From NCBI GenBank assembly GCA_051294905.1, contig CM119372.1, positions 9,922,001-9,986,000 of the forward strand: a stretch of 64,000 nt of DNA, written 5' to 3'. Under the pieces are notes generated by a model. The model was not told the origin of the DNA and ran no database searches. It was given only the letters and a program-made list of their open reading frames with translations. The stretch is from Botryllus schlosseri. Lineage: Eukaryota. This document shows, piece after piece, positions 6,190 through 16,153 of the stretch; the first letter of the stretch is position 1; each line of letters starts with the position of its first letter. A program made the translations under genes and the position numbers.

Positions 6190-7371
6190 CAGGGCTGTGG
6201 AGTCTGTGAATTTTTTCCCCCGACTCTCGAGTCTTTAAACGCACCGAATATTTTCGTCACAGAACTCCGACTCCAACTCCGACTCCAACAGCACTACAAA
6301 TTTACTCCGAAAATCATAAGTCACAGTGATGGTTTAATGACTTTCATATAACCATTAAGCATATGCAAACATATTATTCCCGATGGCATGCATAATTGTT
6401 TCATTGTGACACATCTCCAAATACTCACTGCACAATTAGCATGGAAGTATTTATTTCGAAATATCCTTCCTGTTTTCATATCTTTCAATTTTATATATCA
6501 TAGACTCTAATATATTCTATAATATGTATGAATCATTCAATCATGACATATATTCAATCCTGTATAATTAGGATTTGGATAAAAACGATAAAAGTGTAGC
6601 TCTTGTGTATGAGTCAGTGACGATTACAGAGATGTACAACTTGTCTCACTATACATTATGCTGATGACAAGCACACACTCTTTCACTACTAATAAACGGT
6701 GGCCGGAAACAAAATTTACGGAGTAGACAAATAGCATATATCTATACATGCACATTTAGTCAAGTATTCATGGACTAGGACTATACTTGCGTTCTTTATT
6801 AAATATTTGTTCGAACCAAGCGGCTGAGCCATTTATTATTTTCATTTTGTCAAGTGGGAAGCAGCGTTTGGCTATATTTGCATAAATTTTACAAGTGATG
6901 TTTCACTTACAAAACCAAACGATTTATTTACTCTTTCACAGTATCATGGCATAATTCCTAAAAAAATGCACTAATTTGTGATTGCATCAGCACTTTTGCG
7001 TTGGTCACGAAGATGCATGCATCTTGCAATGTTCTTCCTGTGCAACAGAATTGCAATCTGCGAATAATGTCCAATGTTATCAATATCGTTATTAATAACA
7101 GGGATTGTTGGTACATACGACTCCTATTATATTTATTATGAGTAATTTTAGGAGATCTTTGAAAGCACTTGCTTTCATATGAAAGAAGTTGGAGTCGGAG
7201 TCGGTGTCAGGAGCATTTTCATAAACTCCGACCGCAACTCCAGCCAGTATTTTTAACGACTCCGACTCCAAGGAGTGCTAAAATAATTTTGAGACTCCGA
7301 CTCCATTACGGAAAAATTAGCGAAATTCCGACTTCGAATCCACCGACTCCGACTCCGACTCCACAGCCCTG
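6190..7371. mobile_element. hAT-type MITE (CAGGGCTGTGGAGTC TIR, GACTCC arrays)
   Basis: 15-bp TIRs and TSD gtcaaaac/ttcaaaac. The duplicated copy (~11253-12248) lacks the left TIR and has right flank gtcaaaac. Confidence 0.88.
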
Positions 7372-7764
7372 TTCAAAACAGAGAGGTGAGGTCAACGGAG
7401 CCATTAAGACGCAAATGAGAATATAGTTTGCTTTTGCACCGATCATGAAATAAATTTGAAAGCAAACAACTAAAACCTATCCATTTATTTCTGGAAACAG
7501 CATTTCAAAAGGGCCGTTTCGTAAAACGATTCGTAATTTTAAATATTTATACATAACTTTTCAAAAATTCCTGCGATAGTGTTGTCCACGACATTCATAC
7601 GTGCAGGTTCACTGCAACTGGCGTGCAAGCATTGAGTGTTGATAAATCTAAATAGGACATCATAGCAATGGTTCTTGATCGGGGTTCCTTGGATCATTGA
7701 GCCATCTTTGGATGCAGGCAATTAGGCGAAATCAGTCTCGAGTCCTGACTGATGCAGTGGTACG

Positions 7765-8345
7765 AAGGACCGAAACAGCACTTCGTCAGCCCCCACAGGG
7801 TGATAAACTGAAATTACGTACTAAACGTACAAACTAAAAGACGTACAGGATTTCAAATTAATATTATTTCTTTACTGGTAAATAATGTTCACACAATATG
7901 GCATTTGTCTTGTGGGGCTCAGGTCGCCAGGACAGGAACGTTCGGCGCCAGCCATTTTGGTGGCTATGGACAATCAAACCTGTATGCAGGCCTATACATA
8001 TCGAAGTTTTCGGTCAGCACAAGGGCAATCCTTTTCGGACCAGGTCTTCTACCTGCTCATCGTTCTGGCACGCTTCGTGGCTTTGCTTGTTACATGGCCT
8101 ATAACTTCATATGTCTTGGTGCGTCGTGGCGCGGTAATGTTGGGGAAATGGTACCCAATAGTCAATATATTTGACATAAAATCGCGCGCGGCGCGAAAAA
8201 TCTTTTGAAAAAGTTTCATCAAATTCCAAAAAATAAATAAAATAAAAACTCTATAATTTTTGCTAATTTACGAAATAATTTTGGGCCCCCTTCGAGCTCG
8301 CCCCTCCCAATTGGGAGGGTTTGTGGTGCGGCAGTTACGGTCCTG
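7765..8345 (+). mobile_element. hAT-type MITE, CAGGRCCGTAAC family (short form); duplicate at 12658-13247
   Basis: Ends AAGGACCGAAACAGCAC...GCAGTTACGGTCCTG with flanks gtggtacg/gtggtata. Further fragments at ~16380-17290, 33480-34020, 40650-40876 and 52852-53250. Confidence 0.75.
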
Positions 8346-8644
8346 GTGGTATACGTCGTGAGCAGTAGCGTACCCATGGGTAGGGGTGCGTTTAAAACAA
8401 CTGGTGTTTTAAAACAATCTGTTCAAAACATGTTTTGCATGTTTTAAGCAACATTTTTTTTAAAGTACCATTCATTGGTAAGTTGTATAATCATACGATT
8501 ATTGTGTAAATATTTTCGGCAAATCATGTACTATGAGCCTACGGGCGATTTGCACCAGATGCAGTCGACGAATGCGATATTGATAGTTGAGCTCCCCATC
8601 GACGATCTCACTACTTCGGTAGTGCATTGAAAAAGCCCTGACTG

Positions 8645-8855
8645 AAAGTGTCCGTATGACTAGTTCTTTGTTGCCGACTTTTTGGCACGGCTCACCATCA
8701 CTCTGGGCTTTTTTCAAACACTGCTATGGCAGCGAGATTAACGATGAGGAGCCCAGCTAAACCTCCGACACATAGAAGTTGGACTGAACCGAGATTGGAA
8801 CCACCGCCATTGGTGTCGTGACGCTAGTGCTTAGCCAACTGCGCCACTCGCTTCC
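8645..8855 (-). mobile_element. tRNA-derived SINE; duplicate at ~14352-14505
   Basis: Minus strand reads GGAAGCGAG-TGGCGCAGTTGG (A box)...GGTTCCAATCT (B box), then GTCGGAGGTTTAGCTGGGCTCCTC. Confidence 0.75.
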
Positions 8856-11800
8856 AGCGACACATATATAGCCTATAGATGACCGTCGACCGTATAAATG
8901 CTGCAAAACGATTTAGTTCTGGTCAAAGATATTTTAGTCCATGGGACCATATTTACCCTATATTTTCAATTGTCAATGTCAATCCGCGGTGTCGTCACAA
9001 ATAATGATTCGTGACGTCATAGCTAAAAACCAATTGAAAACATGTTTTAAGCATGCTAGTTTTAATTTGATTTTTGTTAACCCAAGGGGTTGGGGTTCGA
9101 AATCAAAATCCCGTCATGCAGAAAGAACCTATCTCCAATATTTTAGCTCATTTGCAATTAAGCCACAGCAACAACAACTGTTTCGTTTCGTTGGAGCAAT
9201 ACGAAAGCACGTTCTAAGAAGAAGCCTCGCATTGCAAATTGGTCTCTGAAAGGGAATAGCAAAAGTCACAAATGTTTATTACTGTTCGCGAAATCATAGC
9301 GAATATGAAATCATATTTCAATGCTTTTGTTCCTTTAACAAGCTGTTGACGCTCTGCTCATTTTATGCACCAGCAATCCATAGCGATGTATTGGGTGTGT
9401 ACTTATATGTATAAATGTCGTCGAATTTATTATTAAACGTGAAGAACCACGTCCCTATATTCAGTAGGATTCGTGCACAACGTAAATATTTCCGTTTTCC
9501 AGCATATGAGTTCTGGTCGGTGCAAGATCATGGAAGTTCTCAATATTACCTAGCAGTTGACTACTACTTCGGAGCAACCGAGTATATTCTTCTGCGTTAT
9601 CCGAGTGCATGAATCCTATCTTCTACAATCTCGGCTCTACAAAGATGAGGAAGCACAGTGTTCTTTTCATTCGGGAACTATTCAAGCTAAAGCCAAAATC
9701 GAAGCGATCAGCTGAAGCCAGTCCTTATCATGAAACAGGCAATATCAATGTATAATGTTTATACCGCAGTTTTTTTCTTTACCATTATTGTACTGGGTGT
9801 TACAGAATACCCATATGTGGCCGATAAAAATGCGATTTCAACTCGCAAATTTTCACAATATCCGCTCGATATTTTGGTGTGTAAAATTATCTCAATGCAG
9901 AGTTGTGTATCATGCGATATTCGGGCTAAATCTGCCCACTGCGAAAATCCTGTTCGACCCGAAGAGGCGTATTTATTCTGAATGATGACGCGAGTTCGTT
10001 ACCATTCATATATATATGAAATAGCTTAGATGAGCTCTGCTTATGTTACTTCTTCAATAAACAGTGAAGTGATGAGTTTGTTAAACTGGTATAGCCTAAT
10101 ATATATGATGCATCTTCCATTTAAATTATCGCTTGTTTCGTTATTGTCCAAGTTAGACGTAGCCTGGATAGAGTCGTTTTCTTACAATCTGCAGGATAGA
10201 GGGCATATGCGCGATAAAGCTCAGTTGAGACCAGAAATCTCACGTTTGGGTTGTTCCACCCAAATCTGGGTTCTTCTAGCATCCCCTGGGATACTGTTCC
10301 TTGAAATCTCTTTTCAACGTTTGTTGATGGCCATAGCCTTGCCTAAAAAAGCACCAAGTTTAAGTGGTAAACCAAATGTCGCTACACTATAACGCATTGC
10401 AAAAACAAATAAACTGAGCCCGGAGACGCCGGTGTGAGTCCCGGTAAGTGAGAGTAATCTGTTTTTGGTAAGGGGAAGAAACCCTGCCCAGTGCTCTGAT
10501 CCTCTAAGACAGTGGTTTTCAATCGGGTGTCCCCGAAGCATTTTCATGGGGTCCGCGAAGCCGCAAAATAGTTGATGGGCTAATTTTTATTTTTTCAAAT
10601 TTGGAAAATCACCAGGCAGTTTCGCTTCATTACTAGTAAAACTCCAGAGCTCACATCAACAGAATGGCAGTTAGAGATGAAATATTCTACAGTGCAGACT
10701 CGTTTTAATCGCTTAATAGCCAGTAGCCAACGGATAAAAACATTTTCATGTTTGGAGATGTTTTGTTGGAGATTGCGGAAAGAATGGATGAGTAAGGTAA
10801 AGCACGGTGACTTCGAAATGTTTACAAAAATTCATTTTATCTTGTGATATATATGACCTTTTGATAACTTTAAGATAAGCTGCTGGATAGAAATGACCAG
10901 GCTTGGCTTTATTCAGGGGAGGCCAACTTCTCCAATTGGCGGGCCGGGTATGGGAAAATCAAGTATTTGGCGGGTCGGATTCCTAAATTGATACATAAAT
11001 CCACGGTTGTAACCAAGTCGCAAGGCGCCGAGTCACAAGTCAATCTCACTTTTATAGTTTTGACTCGAGTCAAGTCCGTGTCCAAGTCAACGAGCAGAGG
11101 GTCGAGTCCGAGTCATGGTATAATGACTCGAGTCTGAGTTCAAGTCATGGTATGTATGTATGTATAATTGGATATGGTGCGTATATAACATCCCCTCATT
11201 ACCCGACTCGAATCATTACAATTGATATTCAGTTCCAGTCAATTCCTCTCTACCGAGTCTTTGAGCGCACCGAAGATTTTCGTCACAGAACTCCGACTCC
11301 GACTCCAACTCCGTCAACAACAGTAGCCTACCTCAAATTTACTTCGAAAATTATAAGTCATAGTGATGGTTTAATGACTAATAACCATCAAGCATATGCA
11401 AACATATTATTTCCGATGGCATGCAAAATTGTTTCTTCGTGACACATCTCGAAATACTGCACAATTAACATGGAAGTATTTATTTCGAAATATCCCTCCT
11501 TTTTTCATATCTTTCAATTTTATATCATAGACTAATGTATTCTATAATATGTATGAATTATTCAAGCATGCTATATATTCAATCCTGTATATTTAAAATT
11601 TGGATAAAAACAAAAGTGTAGCTCTTGTGTGTGAGTCAGCGACGATTACAGAGATGTACAACCTGTCTCACTATACACTATGCTGATCACAAGCACACAC
11701 TCTTTCACTACTAATAAACGGTGGCCAGAAACGAAATTTAGATAGCAGTCAAATAGCATATGTCTACATGCACATATAGTCAAGTATTAATGGACTAGGG

Positions 11801-13734
11801 ACTATACTTGCCTTCTGTAATAAATAGTTGTTCGAACCAAGCGGCTGAGCCATTTATTACTAGAAATATTTACATTTTGTAAACTGGGAAGCATATTGGC
11901 TATAGGCCTACTTGCATAAATTTTACAAGTGATGTTTCACTTACATAACCAAACGATTTATTCACTCTTTCACAGTATCATGGCATAATTCAAAAAATTG
12001 CACTAATTTGTGAATAATATATATTATAAGTAATTTTAGGAGATCTTTGAAAGGACTTGCTTTCGTATTAAAAAAGTGGGAGTCGGAGTCAGGAGCATTT
12101 TTACAAACTTGGACCGCGACTCCAGCCAGTATTTTTTCAACGACTTCAACTCCAAGGAGTGTTAAAAAAAATCGGGACTCCGAATCCATTACGGAAAAAT
12201 TAGCGAAATTCCTACTTCGAATCCACCGACTCCGACTCCACAGCCCTGGTCAAAACAGAGAGGTGAGGTCCACAGAGCCATTAACATGCAAATGACAATA
12301 TAGGCTACTTTGCTTGTGCACTCATCGTGAAATAGATTTGGAATGCGACAACCAAAACCCATCCATTTATTTCTGGCAACAGCAAGTTTCAAAGGAACGG
12401 CCGTTTCGTAAAACGATACCTACTTTTAAATATTTATACATAACTTTTCAATAATTCCTGCGATAATGTTGTCCACGACATTCATACGTGCAGGTTCACT
12501 GCAACTGACTGCAAGCATTGAGTGCTGATAAATCTAAATCTAAATAGGACATTATAGCAATGGTTCTTAACCGAGGTTTCTGGGATCCTTGAGCCATTGT
12601 TTGAATGCAGGCAATTGGGCGCAATCATTCTCGAGTCCTGACTGCGGTAGTGGTACGCAGGACCGTAACAGCACTTCGTCAGCCCCCGCCCCAAACATTG
12701 GTGTTGGGCCCCCACAGGATGATAAACTGAACTTATGTACTAAACGTAATAAACTAAAAGGCGTACACGATTTCAAATTGGTATTTCTTCACTGGTAAAT
12801 ATAATGTTCCTTCAATATGGCATTTGTCTTTTGGGGCTCAGAACGCCAAAACAGGAACATTCTCGGCGCCAGCCATTCAGGCGGCTATGGACAATGAAGC
12901 ATGTATGCAATATCGAAGTTTTCGGTCAGCACAAGGGCAGTCCTTTTCGGACCAGGTCTTCTCGCTGCTGATCGTTCTGGCACACCTCGTGAAATTGCTT
13001 GTTACATTGTGCGTTGTGGTTGTGACGCGGTAATGTTGGGGGAAAGGGTACCCAATAGTCAAGATATTTGACATGATATCGTGCGCAGCGCGAAAAATCT
13101 TTGAAAAAGTTGAATAAAATTCCAAAAAAATGTAATATAAAAAAACTCTATAGGCTAATTTATGCTAATTTACGAAATAATTTTGGGCCCCCTTCGAGCT
13201 CGCCCCCTCCCAATTGGAGGTTTTGTGGTGCGGCAGTTTCGGTCCTGGTGACATACGTCGTGAGCAGTAGCGTACCCAGTGGTGGGGTTGCATTTAAAAC
13301 TAATGATGTTTTAAAACAATCTGTTTAAAACATGGTGTAAGCAATATTTTTTTAAAAGTGCCATTCAAAAATGCCTTTTGATAAGTTGTATAATTAAACG
13401 ATTATTGTGTAAATATTTTCGGAAAAACATGCTGTATGAGCCTACGGATGATTTTCACCCGATGCAGTCGACGAATACGATACGGAACGGCCGGAACCCT
13501 CGAAACCGTCGTCGGTTTAACAGGCAGTTATAGCACATGATACTGCTGTTTGTTTTATTTTTATGGAACAATTTTGGCGCTTATCGCGTAACCAGATAAT
13601 TTGCGCCATGATATTGAAGGCAGTAATGTTCGTCAGTGTCTTTGCCTTTGGTGCTCTTCCATACGGACGACTTCCAACCAGTAGCCACGCATCTATTCAC
13701 CAGCAGTTACCATCGCTTTCATGTTTCCGTATAA

Positions 13735-14337
13735 GGGAAGCGAATGGCGCAGCTGGTTACGCACTGCAGTCAAGACACCGATGGAAGTGGGTTCCAATTC
13801 CAGTTACGTGTCGCACCATAACATACAACAATAAGAATCAGAAAAAATCCAATTGCGCAGATCTGAAAATGGAATGTGAGAAAATGTGGCGATGCAAAAT
13901 AAACATTGTACCGATAGTCATTGGCGCTACAGGGACCGTAACCAAAAAACTCATGACACATATCTAACAGATTCCGGGTAACGTTCGATTCAACACGATT
14001 CAAAAGATCACGTTTTTGGGCAATGCGCATATTCTTCGGAAGGCCTTGAATGCACCACTGGACTAAAATTACACTTATGAATCACTGCATAATTTATGTC
14101 ATTTCGATTCTTCATTTTCAATCATTTCTACCTCTGCTCTATAATCCTTGCCAATGCTTCATGTACTGCAGTTCTGTAATCTGACTTCTCCATGTATTGC
14201 AGAGGAATAACAATTTGACTGCATTACTGAAATTTTAAAAATTTACTCCAATCTCGCCATTTTCCTTTTGGGGCAGGTTGCTCCCCGAATTACGTGTGTA
14301 TTTACCAGTTTTACTATGAATAAAGACCATAATAATA
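13735..14337 (+). mobile_element. Chimeric retroposon: tRNA-SINE head plus 3' end of a restriction-like-endonuclease (R4/Dong-like) LINE plus (TAA)n
   Basis: A box 13745-13756 and B box 13790-13801. 13829-14066 encodes ADLKMECEKMWRCKINIVPIVIGATGTVTKKL...*...IQKITFLGNAHILRKAL*. AATAAA at 14319, then a TAA tail. 14-bp TSD atgtttccgtataa (13721-13734)/atgtgtccgtataa (14338-14351). Confidence 0.85.
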
Positions 14338-15163
14338 ATGTGTCCGTATAACTAGTCCTTTGTTGCCGACATTGGCAGTGATGTTGGTGATGAGGAGCCC
14401 AGATGAACCACCGACACATAGAAGTTGGTCAGAACCGAGATTGGAACCACTGATGCCATTGGTGTCGTGACGCCGGTGCTTAACCAAGTGCGCCACTCGC
14501 TTCCCAGCGGCACATATATATAATATAGATCATTTGTACGGAATGAATGTTATGATGATGATGATGACCGTCGACCGTAAAAATGCTGCATAACGATTTG
14601 ATTCTGGTCAAAGATATTTTAGTCCATGGAACCATATTTACCCTATATTTTAAATTGTCAATGTCAATCCGCGGTGTCGTCGCAATTAAAGATTCGTGAC
14701 GGCATAGCTAAAAAAAACAATAAAAAACACGTTTAAACCTTCTTGTTTTAATTTGATTTTTGGAGTTAGAAATTCAAATCCCGTCATGCTAAAAGGGCGA
14801 TTCTATCTCCAATATTTTAGCTCATTTGAAATTAAGCCACATGCAGCAACAACAACTGTTTCGTTTCGTTGGAGCAATACGAAAGCACATACTAAGAAGA
14901 AGCCTCGCATTGCAAATTGGTCTCTGAAAGGGAATAGCAGGAGTCACAATACATGTTTATTACTGTTCGCGAAATCATAGCGACCATGAAATCATATTTC
15001 CATGTATTAGTTCATTTAACAAGCTGTTGACGTACAGCTTATTGTATGCACAAACAGTCTATAGCAATGCATTGGGTGTCGCCGAATTTATTATTAAACG
15101 TGGAGAGCCGCTTCCCTATATTCAGTAGGCTTCGCGCACAAAGTAAATATTTCCCTTTTCCTG

Positions 15164-15372
15164 CATATGAATTCTGGTCGGTGCAAGATCATGGAAGTTC
15201 TCAATATTACTTAGCAGTTGACTACTACTTCGGAGCAACCGAGTATATTCTCCCAAGTTTATCCGAGTGCATGAATCCTAGGATAGCTATCTTCTACAAT
15301 CTCGGCTCCACAAACATGAGGAAGCACAGCGTTCTTTTCATTAGGGAACTACTCAAGCTAAAGCCAAAATAG
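15164..15372 (+). pseudogene. Duplicated dead last exon (TM7/C-tail) of GPCR gene 1
   Basis: Paralog of 9503-9755. The acceptor CAG has become CTG (15161-15163), a 9-nt insertion breaks NPIFY (MNP-RIA-IFY), and TCG>TAG gives a premature stop at 15370. Confidence 0.88.
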
Positions 15373-16153
15373 AAGCGATCAGCTGAAGCCAGCCCTTATC
15401 ATGAAACATCAGGCGATATCAATCTATAATGTTTATACCGCATATCTTTCTTTCCTACTATTGTGCAGGGTGTTACAGAACACCCTAATGCGGCCCGCAA
15501 AAATGCGATTTCAACTTGCCAATTTTTAAAATATCTGGACTATATTTTGGTGTGTAAAATATCTCAATGCAGAGTTGTGTATCCGGCGATATTCGGGCTA
15601 ATTGCGGCCACTGAGAAAAACCTGTTCGATCCGCACAGGCGTATTTATTCTGAATGCTGACGCGAGTTCATTACCATGCAGATTTAATTGAAATACCTTT
15701 TTTGAGCTCTGTTTATGTTATTAAGTTCTTCAATATATACCGAAGTGATGGATTTGCTAAAAATGGTTCAGCCTAATATATATCATGCGCATTTCATTTT
15801 AATAATTGCATGCTTCAGTATTGTCCATGTTAGACTTGTCCTTCATAAATGTCGGCGAAGCGCTTTTTGTGAGTCCTTCTCCTACAATCTGCAGCATAGA
15901 ACGCATGTGCGCGATAAAGCTCATATGAGACCAGAAATCCCACGTTTCGATTTTTCCACCCAAATCTAGGTTTTTCGATCCCCTGGGATACTGTTCCTTG
16001 AATTTTTTAACGTTTATTGATGGCCGTAGCCTTACATTAGAAAGCTCCAAGATCAAGTGGTAGGCTACACCAAACGTCGCTACACTGCAACATCATGCAG
16101 AAACAAATGAACAATCAATCATTTACTAACAAACTATATAAAGGTCTATAGAT

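Follow-up and report, generated by a model that had tools for sequence, protein, structure and literature searches.

The window analyzed here is a 64,000-nucleotide (nt) stretch of Botryllus schlosseri DNA (assembly GCA_051294905.1, contig CM119372.1, positions 9,922,001 to 9,986,000 of the forward strand), and all positions given below are those of the window. At 13721-14351, it carries the front of a tRNA-derived short interspersed element (SINE) joined to the back of a long interspersed element (LINE), with a 14-bp repeat on either side of the pair. The joined SINE front and LINE back at 13735-14337 were confirmed as a real structure, with 13500-14700 being read directly. This composite is probably a nested and decayed one and not a unit of retrotransposition: a SINE would have inserted first, a LINE would then have landed in the tail of that SINE, and a deletion would have followed. 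An earlier note on this DNA had described a tRNA-headed SINE carrying the 3' end of a restriction-like-endonuclease (RLE) LINE of the R4/Dong type, inserted as one unit, and had offered two explanations, a SINE family mobilized by such a LINE or a one-off template-switch chimera. The parts that it listed were all present where it had placed them, namely, the A and B boxes, the RLE-like segment, the 3' untranslated region (3'UTR), the AATAAA, the (TAA)n tail, and the 14-bp target-site duplication with one mismatch.

Structure of the composite and of its tandem paralogue

The two copies of the flanking repeat, ATGTTTCCGTATAA at 13721-13734 and ATGTGTCCGTATAA at 14338-14351 (both on the plus strand), are identical at 13 of 14 positions (ATGT[T/G]TCCGTATAA), and neighboring offsets match at 3-5 of 14. 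The first 2 nt of the right copy are shared with the LINE tail. Between the repeats, the plus-strand SINE head occupies 13735-13813 and is followed by the six bases CACCAT (13814-13819, plus strand), which are not assignable with certainty to the SINE or to the LINE: SINE homology stops at 13813, and LINE homology begins at 13817 by BLAST and is unambiguous from 13820. The decayed end of the LINE open reading frame (ORF), at 13817-14066 on the same strand, holds the last ~83 codons, which by translation represent the C-terminal part of the predicted endonuclease domain. The LINE 3'UTR extends over 14067-14337 (plus strand), with AATAAA at 14319-14324 and (TAA)3 at 14330-14338, and is 90% identical to the 3' ends that the LINE has at 29 loci.

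The outer flanks are the two halves, in order, of one older SINE on the minus strand. Its 5' part, which was the insertion target, lies at 14341-14505, where 14505-14386 align at 86% identity with positions 1-118 of a 378-nt SINE consensus assembled from 12 genomic copies. Its 3' part and decayed tail lie at 13549-13720, where 13716-13549 align with consensus positions 204-374, and a gap occupies the middle of this antisense SINE. When the unit and one copy of the repeat were removed by a script, the flanks aligned end to end with the SINE consensus, and this reconstructs the empty site. In a genome search, the first 66-69 nt of the antisense-SINE query were common. The head is also 81% identical to a minus-strand SINE at 8794-8855, in agreement with the earlier assignment of the head and of the SINEs at 8855 and 14505 to the same family.

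The junction is no assembly artifact. Assembly error was ruled out because independent contigs cover the locus: a contig of X5, from another sample and another study, spans 13500-13895, including the junction, with eight differences, and X1 contigs lie over 13500-13846 and 14297-14435 with zero differences. In the RNA run X23, all 99 reads fit the window only partly and then diverge, with no reads attributable to the composite; these reads therefore derive from other repeat copies and are uninformative on the composite.

The locus belongs to a tandem duplication (window 7000-16000) with a unit of ~4.9 kb and arms that are 74-96% identical. The arm spacing is 4877-4912 nt left of the composite and 5646-5700 nt right of it, a difference that corresponds to the region 13483-14337. 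As the earlier note had seen, the target is present once in copy 1, where plus-strand positions 8645-8678, which include the start of the paralogous antisense SINE, match 14337-14370 at 91% identity. This part of its account of the paralogue stands, but two features had been overlooked. Copy 1 is not collinear left of the target, as 13483-13735 (253 nt, containing the antisense SINE 3' part) is without a counterpart, and these 253 nt are replaced by 67 nt, within which a plus-strand SINE fragment extends exactly as far as the target. The fragment (8588-8650) lies directly left of the single target copy and corresponds to consensus positions 103-164 (85.7% identity, E = 2.4e-16). The breakpoint in copy 1 falls within ~3 nt of the insertion point in copy 2. 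Because non-overlapping SINE pieces of the same strand sit at one target in both paralogues, the fragment in copy 1 (103-164) and the head in copy 2 (1-92) suggest remnants of one whole plus-strand SINE that was older than the duplication and whose decay took a different course in each arm. Alternatively, the fragment in copy 1 might be the product of a second aberrant event at the same site.

A locus of this kind, within a tandem duplication rich in indels and with the replacement of 253 nt by 67 nt in copy 1 left unexplained, could have been assembled at the DNA level, through ectopic recombination, gene conversion, or repair involving copies of the SINE and the LINE at dispersed sites, with the 14-bp repeat having some other origin. 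We regard this as improbable, since the repeat lies exactly at the first base of the SINE and right after the (TAA)n tail and since the flanks are contiguous halves of one antisense SINE, which is the signature of a retro-insertion.

Elsewhere in the duplication, stretches rich in GACTCC/CCGACTCC occur in both arms (7126-7356 and 12014-12239). Similar stretches lie beside a truncated SINE at another genomic locus, L045, and look like another repeat family.

A single-copy junction between two common repeats

The junction between head and tail occurs once in the genome. Of the 8 candidates retrieved with a 101-nt junction query, all of which were scored, the own locus alone spans the junction, and the other 7 match the LINE side alone. 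A 24-nt junction word, allowing up to 3 mismatches, has one occurrence in the 495 Mb of the host assembly, as does its reversed control. Viewed from the tail, the SINE head was sought in the 130 nt upstream of 29 other tail loci and was found in none (0/29); LINE coding sequence fills these 130 nt in 25 of the 29, and in L010, L012, L015, and L017 the LINE begins within 130 nt upstream of the junction-equivalent point. Viewed from the head, every one of 29 other head loci runs on into the common SINE body. These results refute, for the assembly examined, a SINE family with this head-tail junction, and with it the earlier suggestion of a SINE family mobilized by an RLE-type LINE.

The related reading, that the unit is a member or founder of a true SINE family with a tRNA head and an RLE-LINE tail, transcribed by RNA polymerase III (Pol III) and mobilized as a whole, is exceedingly improbable. 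It draws on the A- and B-box-like head, the LINE 3' end with its tail, and the flanking repeat, all of which are present, and one account (PMC5786205) proposes that SINEs can be born when a small-RNA head is joined to LINE-derived RNA. Against it stand the lone junction in 495 Mb, the degenerate B box, the 10% divergence of a copy that has no relatives with the same junction, and the six runs of four or more T in the tail part. Pol III stops at T runs. Runs of at least four T number six in 13817-14340, compared with three in the 3'-terminal 540 nt of the LINE reference and zero in the 378-nt SINE consensus. Given the six runs in the tail, a Pol III transcript from the head would therefore end before the tail.

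The composite resembles the known SINE-LINE pairs with a common 3' tail (stringent recognition, as in tRNA SINEs with L2, CR1, or RTE tails) in that a tRNA-derived head is followed by LINE 3' sequence. In contrast to those pairs, its junction is not multicopy, and the SINE family here keeps its own 3' end. No tRNA SINE with an R4/Dong or other RLE partner was found in the literature searched, whose scope did not extend to Repbase, and the locus itself supplies none. One candidate sibling, L033, where the LINE has nearly the same 5' end (reference position 1493), was rejected: its upstream sequence carries a similar 3' motif and not the tRNA SINE, and it is 88% identical to the window tail, no nearer than other old copies.

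Along its entire length, the tail (13817-14339) shares 90% identity with many genomic LINE 3' ends (53 matches listed, from the best 40 of 1285 candidates). Translated from 13857, it gives ADLKMECEKMW..IVPIVIGATG..ILRKAL, a frame that is interrupted by a TAA at 13965-13967 and closes at its natural stop at 14064-14066. A full-length copy of this LINE, in L072 (G000:C2:29643100-29647500, minus strand 3981-292), has a 5'UTR of ~98 nt, starts immediately after the (TAA)n tail of a SINE-like element, and contains one intact ORF of 1229 aa, P0122. The ORF piece in the window corresponds to the end of P0122 and to residues ~440-522 of P0001, which comprises the final 522 aa of the LINE protein, and lies downstream of the PD motif.

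Several lines of evidence bear on the type of this LINE. In P0122, Pfam places RVT_1 at residues 517-782 (E = 3.3e-30), besides a weak zf-RVT, and finds zero matches in the N-terminal 500 residues. An apurinic/apyrimidinic (AP) endonuclease (Exo_endo_phos, Pfam) was detected neither in P0122 at E ≤ 0.1 nor in 6 full-length relatives at E ≤ 0.01. When P0001 was aligned with 37 relatives from other organisms (38-48% identical), the invariant positions in the 38 sequences included C331, C334, H343, and C348, which form a CCHC knuckle, as well as R359-H360, P417-D418, and K449. As for the diverged Myb/SANT-like N-terminal domain, devoid of zinc fingers, that marks the R4/Dong clade, the alignment consensus shows a conserved W-containing block, R.KWT.E...CYY.A...TY..WR, which may or may not correspond to it. 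Among PDB sequences, R2 proteins were the best matches of P0122 (E = 8.9e-30), with L1 ORF2p at ~1e-14, and phmmer with the 522-aa P0001 gave zero matches there, although the full ORF did match R2. An AlphaFold model of the 522 residues of P0001 has a mean predicted local distance difference test score of 88.6; with this model, each of the 7 leading Foldseek matches was an R2 retrotransposon protein (E = 4.6e-13 to 2.5e-8), and Prp8 and bunyaviral cap-snatching nucleases came next. Because of these motifs, the R2-like fold, and the lack of an AP endonuclease in the intact 1229-aa copy, the tail is supported as the 3' end of an RLE-type LINE with a predicted nuclease of the PD..(D/E)xK type.

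A protein search of the own genome listed 39 matches (from the best 37 of 2810 candidates), 28 of them free of stops within the match. Open frames of 1226-1255 aa hold 18 of these 28, which suggests recent activity of this very abundant family. Young copies are 98-99.9% alike, and the copy in the window is ~10% diverged from them. As a separate observation, an OTU domain (PF02338) is annotated in 2 of 120 listed full-length relatives from other organisms (P0058 and P0059). In P0058, an OTU-like cysteine protease domain was confirmed at residues 26-118, before the reverse transcriptase (E = 1.3e-13); unlike P0058, P0122 is without an OTU domain by Pfam.

The LINE also has a marked habit of following TAA repeats. 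Of the 40 distinct 5'-truncated copies in the fetched loci, 26 are preceded, within 20 nt, by two or more TAA-type units in tandem, compared with 486 of 20,000 random windows of the same loci (2.4%). The upstream (TAA)n is often the tail of another LINE copy, the tail of a SINE, or a plain microsatellite. Head-to-tail arrays arise in which each 5'-truncated copy begins in the (TAA)n tail of its predecessor (L011, L003, L022, L026, L027, L030, and G000:C1:29796911-29800042). Array members differ in age, with identities to the reference of 99.2, 99.0, 98.0, 99.4, and 94.4% in L011 and 90.8, 97.1, and 94.2% in L003, which argues for repeated separate landings in (TAA)n and not for one multi-jump event.

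In this behavior, the LINE is similar to R4/Dong elements, which in one source (PMC7998251) are described as having a reverse transcriptase and an RLE, an N terminus without a recognizable motif except a diverged Myb, and, for Dong, (TAA)n as the target in most insects, molluscs, and cnidarians. The likeness extends to a single ORF with a reverse transcriptase, a CCHC knuckle, and an endonuclease of the PD..(D/E)xK type, to the lack of an AP endonuclease and of an N-terminal motif that Pfam recognizes, and to (TAA)n at 5' junctions with head-to-tail arrays, the arrays being a feature of the LINE described here. Some families of the HERO clade are microsatellite specific too (PMC4640811). The LINE thus fits a Dong-like mode of action, and we use "Dong-like" as a label by behavior. 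Of the earlier assignment of the tail to an R4/Dong-type RLE LINE, the RLE part holds on account of the motifs, the fold, and the missing AP endonuclease; the (TAA)n habit fits R4/Dong, and the clade name is tentative.

The head, for its part, is a piece of a common SINE. Positions 13735-13804 represent consensus positions 1-70, and 13805-13813 represent 84-92, with 13 nt absent between them and 71 of 79 aligned bases identical. The head carries an A-box-like TGGCGCAGCTGG and a B-box-like GGTTCCAATTCC, named by comparison with the box consensus; the latter deviates from the GGTTCGAATCC-type box of the SINE family and is degenerate. Matches elsewhere in the genome are 83-92% identical over head positions 1-63 or 1-70 (best 40 of 70 candidates). 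ARAGORN reported zero tRNAs in the window and in 25 head loci and so did not name a parent tRNA, and Rfam at gathering thresholds gave zero matches in the window.

Members of this SINE family are ~378 nt long, with a 3' end of ..GATAAGCGCCACTGTGTTGTACC(AAT)n and an own terminus of ..GATAAGCGCCACTGTG..(TAA)n. The (TAA)n tail common to the SINE and to the Dong-like LINE points to the latter as the partner of the SINE, whereas the random, non-(TAA)n targets of the SINE point elsewhere. Six SINE copies, read by eye, have duplications of 11-15 bp at unrelated, non-(TAA)n sites. The likeness noticed by eye between the two 3' ends consists of ACTGTG and the (TAA)n tail. LINEs of the I clade likewise terminate in TAA repeats (PMC3747384). 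Several different-looking elements have in common a 3' motif, GATAAGCG(C/T)CACTGTG, followed by 8-25 variable nt and (TAA)n. It was seen at 1440-1500 in L033 and upstream of LINE copies in L016, L017, L019, L022, and L058 and may be the recognition tail of the true partner LINE of the SINE.

Nested insertion and template switching

From these observations, we infer an order of events in which an old SINE would first have been resident on the minus strand. A second SINE of the same superfamily would have inserted in plus orientation, generating the 14-bp target-site duplication, and a 5'-truncated Dong-like LINE of ~524 nt would then have landed in the (TAA)n tail of this plus-strand SINE. Finally, a deletion, either at the LINE 5' junction during integration or later, would have taken away positions 93-378 of the SINE together with the upstream portion of the tail. 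The outcome would be a SINE head abutting a LINE tail inside the SINE's own duplication.

Comparable pairs occur elsewhere in the genome. A LINE directly follows the SINE in 6 of 29 head loci (not de-duplicated), five of them recognized by BLAST (L044, L049, L050, L057, and L058) and one by eye (L042). In L042, L050, and L009, the SINE's duplication, read by eye, brackets a SINE-LINE composite. Because six target bases, GCATAA, separate the SINE tail from the LINE in L050, this locus fits a LINE that inserted next to a SINE already in place and does not agree with a jump onto RNA of the SINE. The SINE 3' end can also be lost at the LINE 5' junction, as the SINE ends at ~358 in L003, at ~362 in L044, and at 189 in L057; the composite in the window, at 92, is the extreme. 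The duplicated site at the composite is not (TAA)n, which is normal for the SINE and unusual for the LINE, and the flanking repeat can be the SINE's own duplication. Since SINE tails are landing sites of the Dong-like LINE, the repeat does not prove a single insertion. Consequently, the earlier view of an insertion as one unit is right in that the repeat brackets both parts, and a single insertion is doubtful given these landing sites and the SINE piece in the paralogue.

The deletion that the nested order calls for has a setting at this locus, where indels are common (the 13-nt gap in the head, the gap in the antisense SINE, and the 253 nt absent in copy 1). At the 5' junctions of RLE-type LINEs, imprecision and the loss of target sequence upstream are frequent, but a loss of ~290 nt, as would apply here, exceeds what is usual for R2. 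Compared with the 5'-junction variation of R2 and with its internally deleted derivatives (SIDEs), the loss of ~290 nt at the composite is not datable to integration.

Several points weigh against the nested order. An intermediate, be it an entire SINE by itself or one whose tail holds a LINE, was not seen at the locus, and no (TAA)n remnant lies at the head-tail junction. The plus-strand SINE pieces in the two paralogues do not overlap, which makes their common origin uncheckable by sequence, and copy 1 needs two deletions of its own. Three events are needed, compared with one for a template switch. The head and the tail are about equally distant from their own families (90% each), which also fits a single event. 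Moreover, the counts of composites come from ~70 loci picked by similarity to the query and are not a genome-wide census.

In a one-off template switch, the reverse transcriptase would copy the last ~524 nt of the LINE RNA, switch to a Pol III transcript of the SINE at about nt 92, and run to the SINE 5' end, so that one event would yield the whole composite and its 14-bp duplication. The layout of a chimeric retrocopy is indeed present: two transcripts are fused, the 5' partner starts from its own 5' end, and one duplication surrounds both. The head begins exactly at the first base of the SINE, the unit ends in the LINE tail, the junction is single copy, the two parts are about equally diverged, and six unassignable bases lie at the junction. 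Other junctions internal to the SINE involve the Dong-like LINE as well (L057, with a 4-nt overlap, CTGA; L044; and L003), and R2-type reverse transcriptases are known for template jumping. We still consider a switch unlikely here, although less so than a rearrangement of DNA. A LINE that seeks (TAA)n would have had to start at a non-(TAA)n site, the piece of plus-strand SINE that the paralogue carries at the corresponding target would be left unexplained, and a nested insertion yields the same repeat around the composite. The switch would also have to lead from within the LINE to within the SINE, which is atypical, as end-to-end jumps are the rule. The alternative offered by the earlier note, a one-off chimera, is thus in keeping with the single-copy junction and is weakened by the off-target site and by the fragment in the paralogue.

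LINEs have been described as giving rise to chimeras when templates are switched (PMC2104539), and the comparison with chimeric retrocopies of the U6/L1 and MINE types is instructive. These are like the composite in that they unite two unrelated transcripts of the same orientation, have the LINE 3' end on the 3' side, and are enclosed by one duplication. They are, however, products of a single event at ordinary LINE targets. In contrast to the U6/L1-type chimeras, the 5' partner in the composite is a mobile element whose own tail is the preferred target of the Dong-like LINE. Furthermore, a SINE piece of the same strand sits at the target in the paralogue; this piece (103-164), which does not overlap the head, points to a SINE resident at the site beforehand, and nested insertion explains the composite at least as well.

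In L057 (G000:C12:9732553-9735608; locus positions ~1487-2113), the SINE breaks off at position 189 and the final ~110 nt of the LINE take over, the two parts overlapping by CTGA. A possible 8-nt flanking repeat, TGGCTTCA, surrounds this pair and could be due to chance.

Implications for retroelements of this genome

The composite is dead, single-copy debris of two common repeats; no gene or regulatory role is indicated, and it does not represent a new kind of element. Were it, against our expectation, the product of an in vivo template switch in which the reverse transcriptase of a Dong-like RLE LINE left its own RNA for a Pol III transcript of the SINE, the composite would have caught the initial step through which SINEs could gain an RLE-LINE tail. 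The junctions in L003, L044, and L057, where the SINE 3' end is lost, could inform the second-strand steps of RLE-type LINEs in vivo.

More generally, a flanking duplication around a SINE and a LINE is no proof of a single insertion where the LINE targets the microsatellite tail of the SINE. Nested composites of this kind call for caution in the annotation of "chimeric" retrocopies and of candidate new SINE families. In this genome, the Dong-like LINE is abundant and apparently intact, and it lands in the (TAA)n tails that other retroelements provide and builds arrays.

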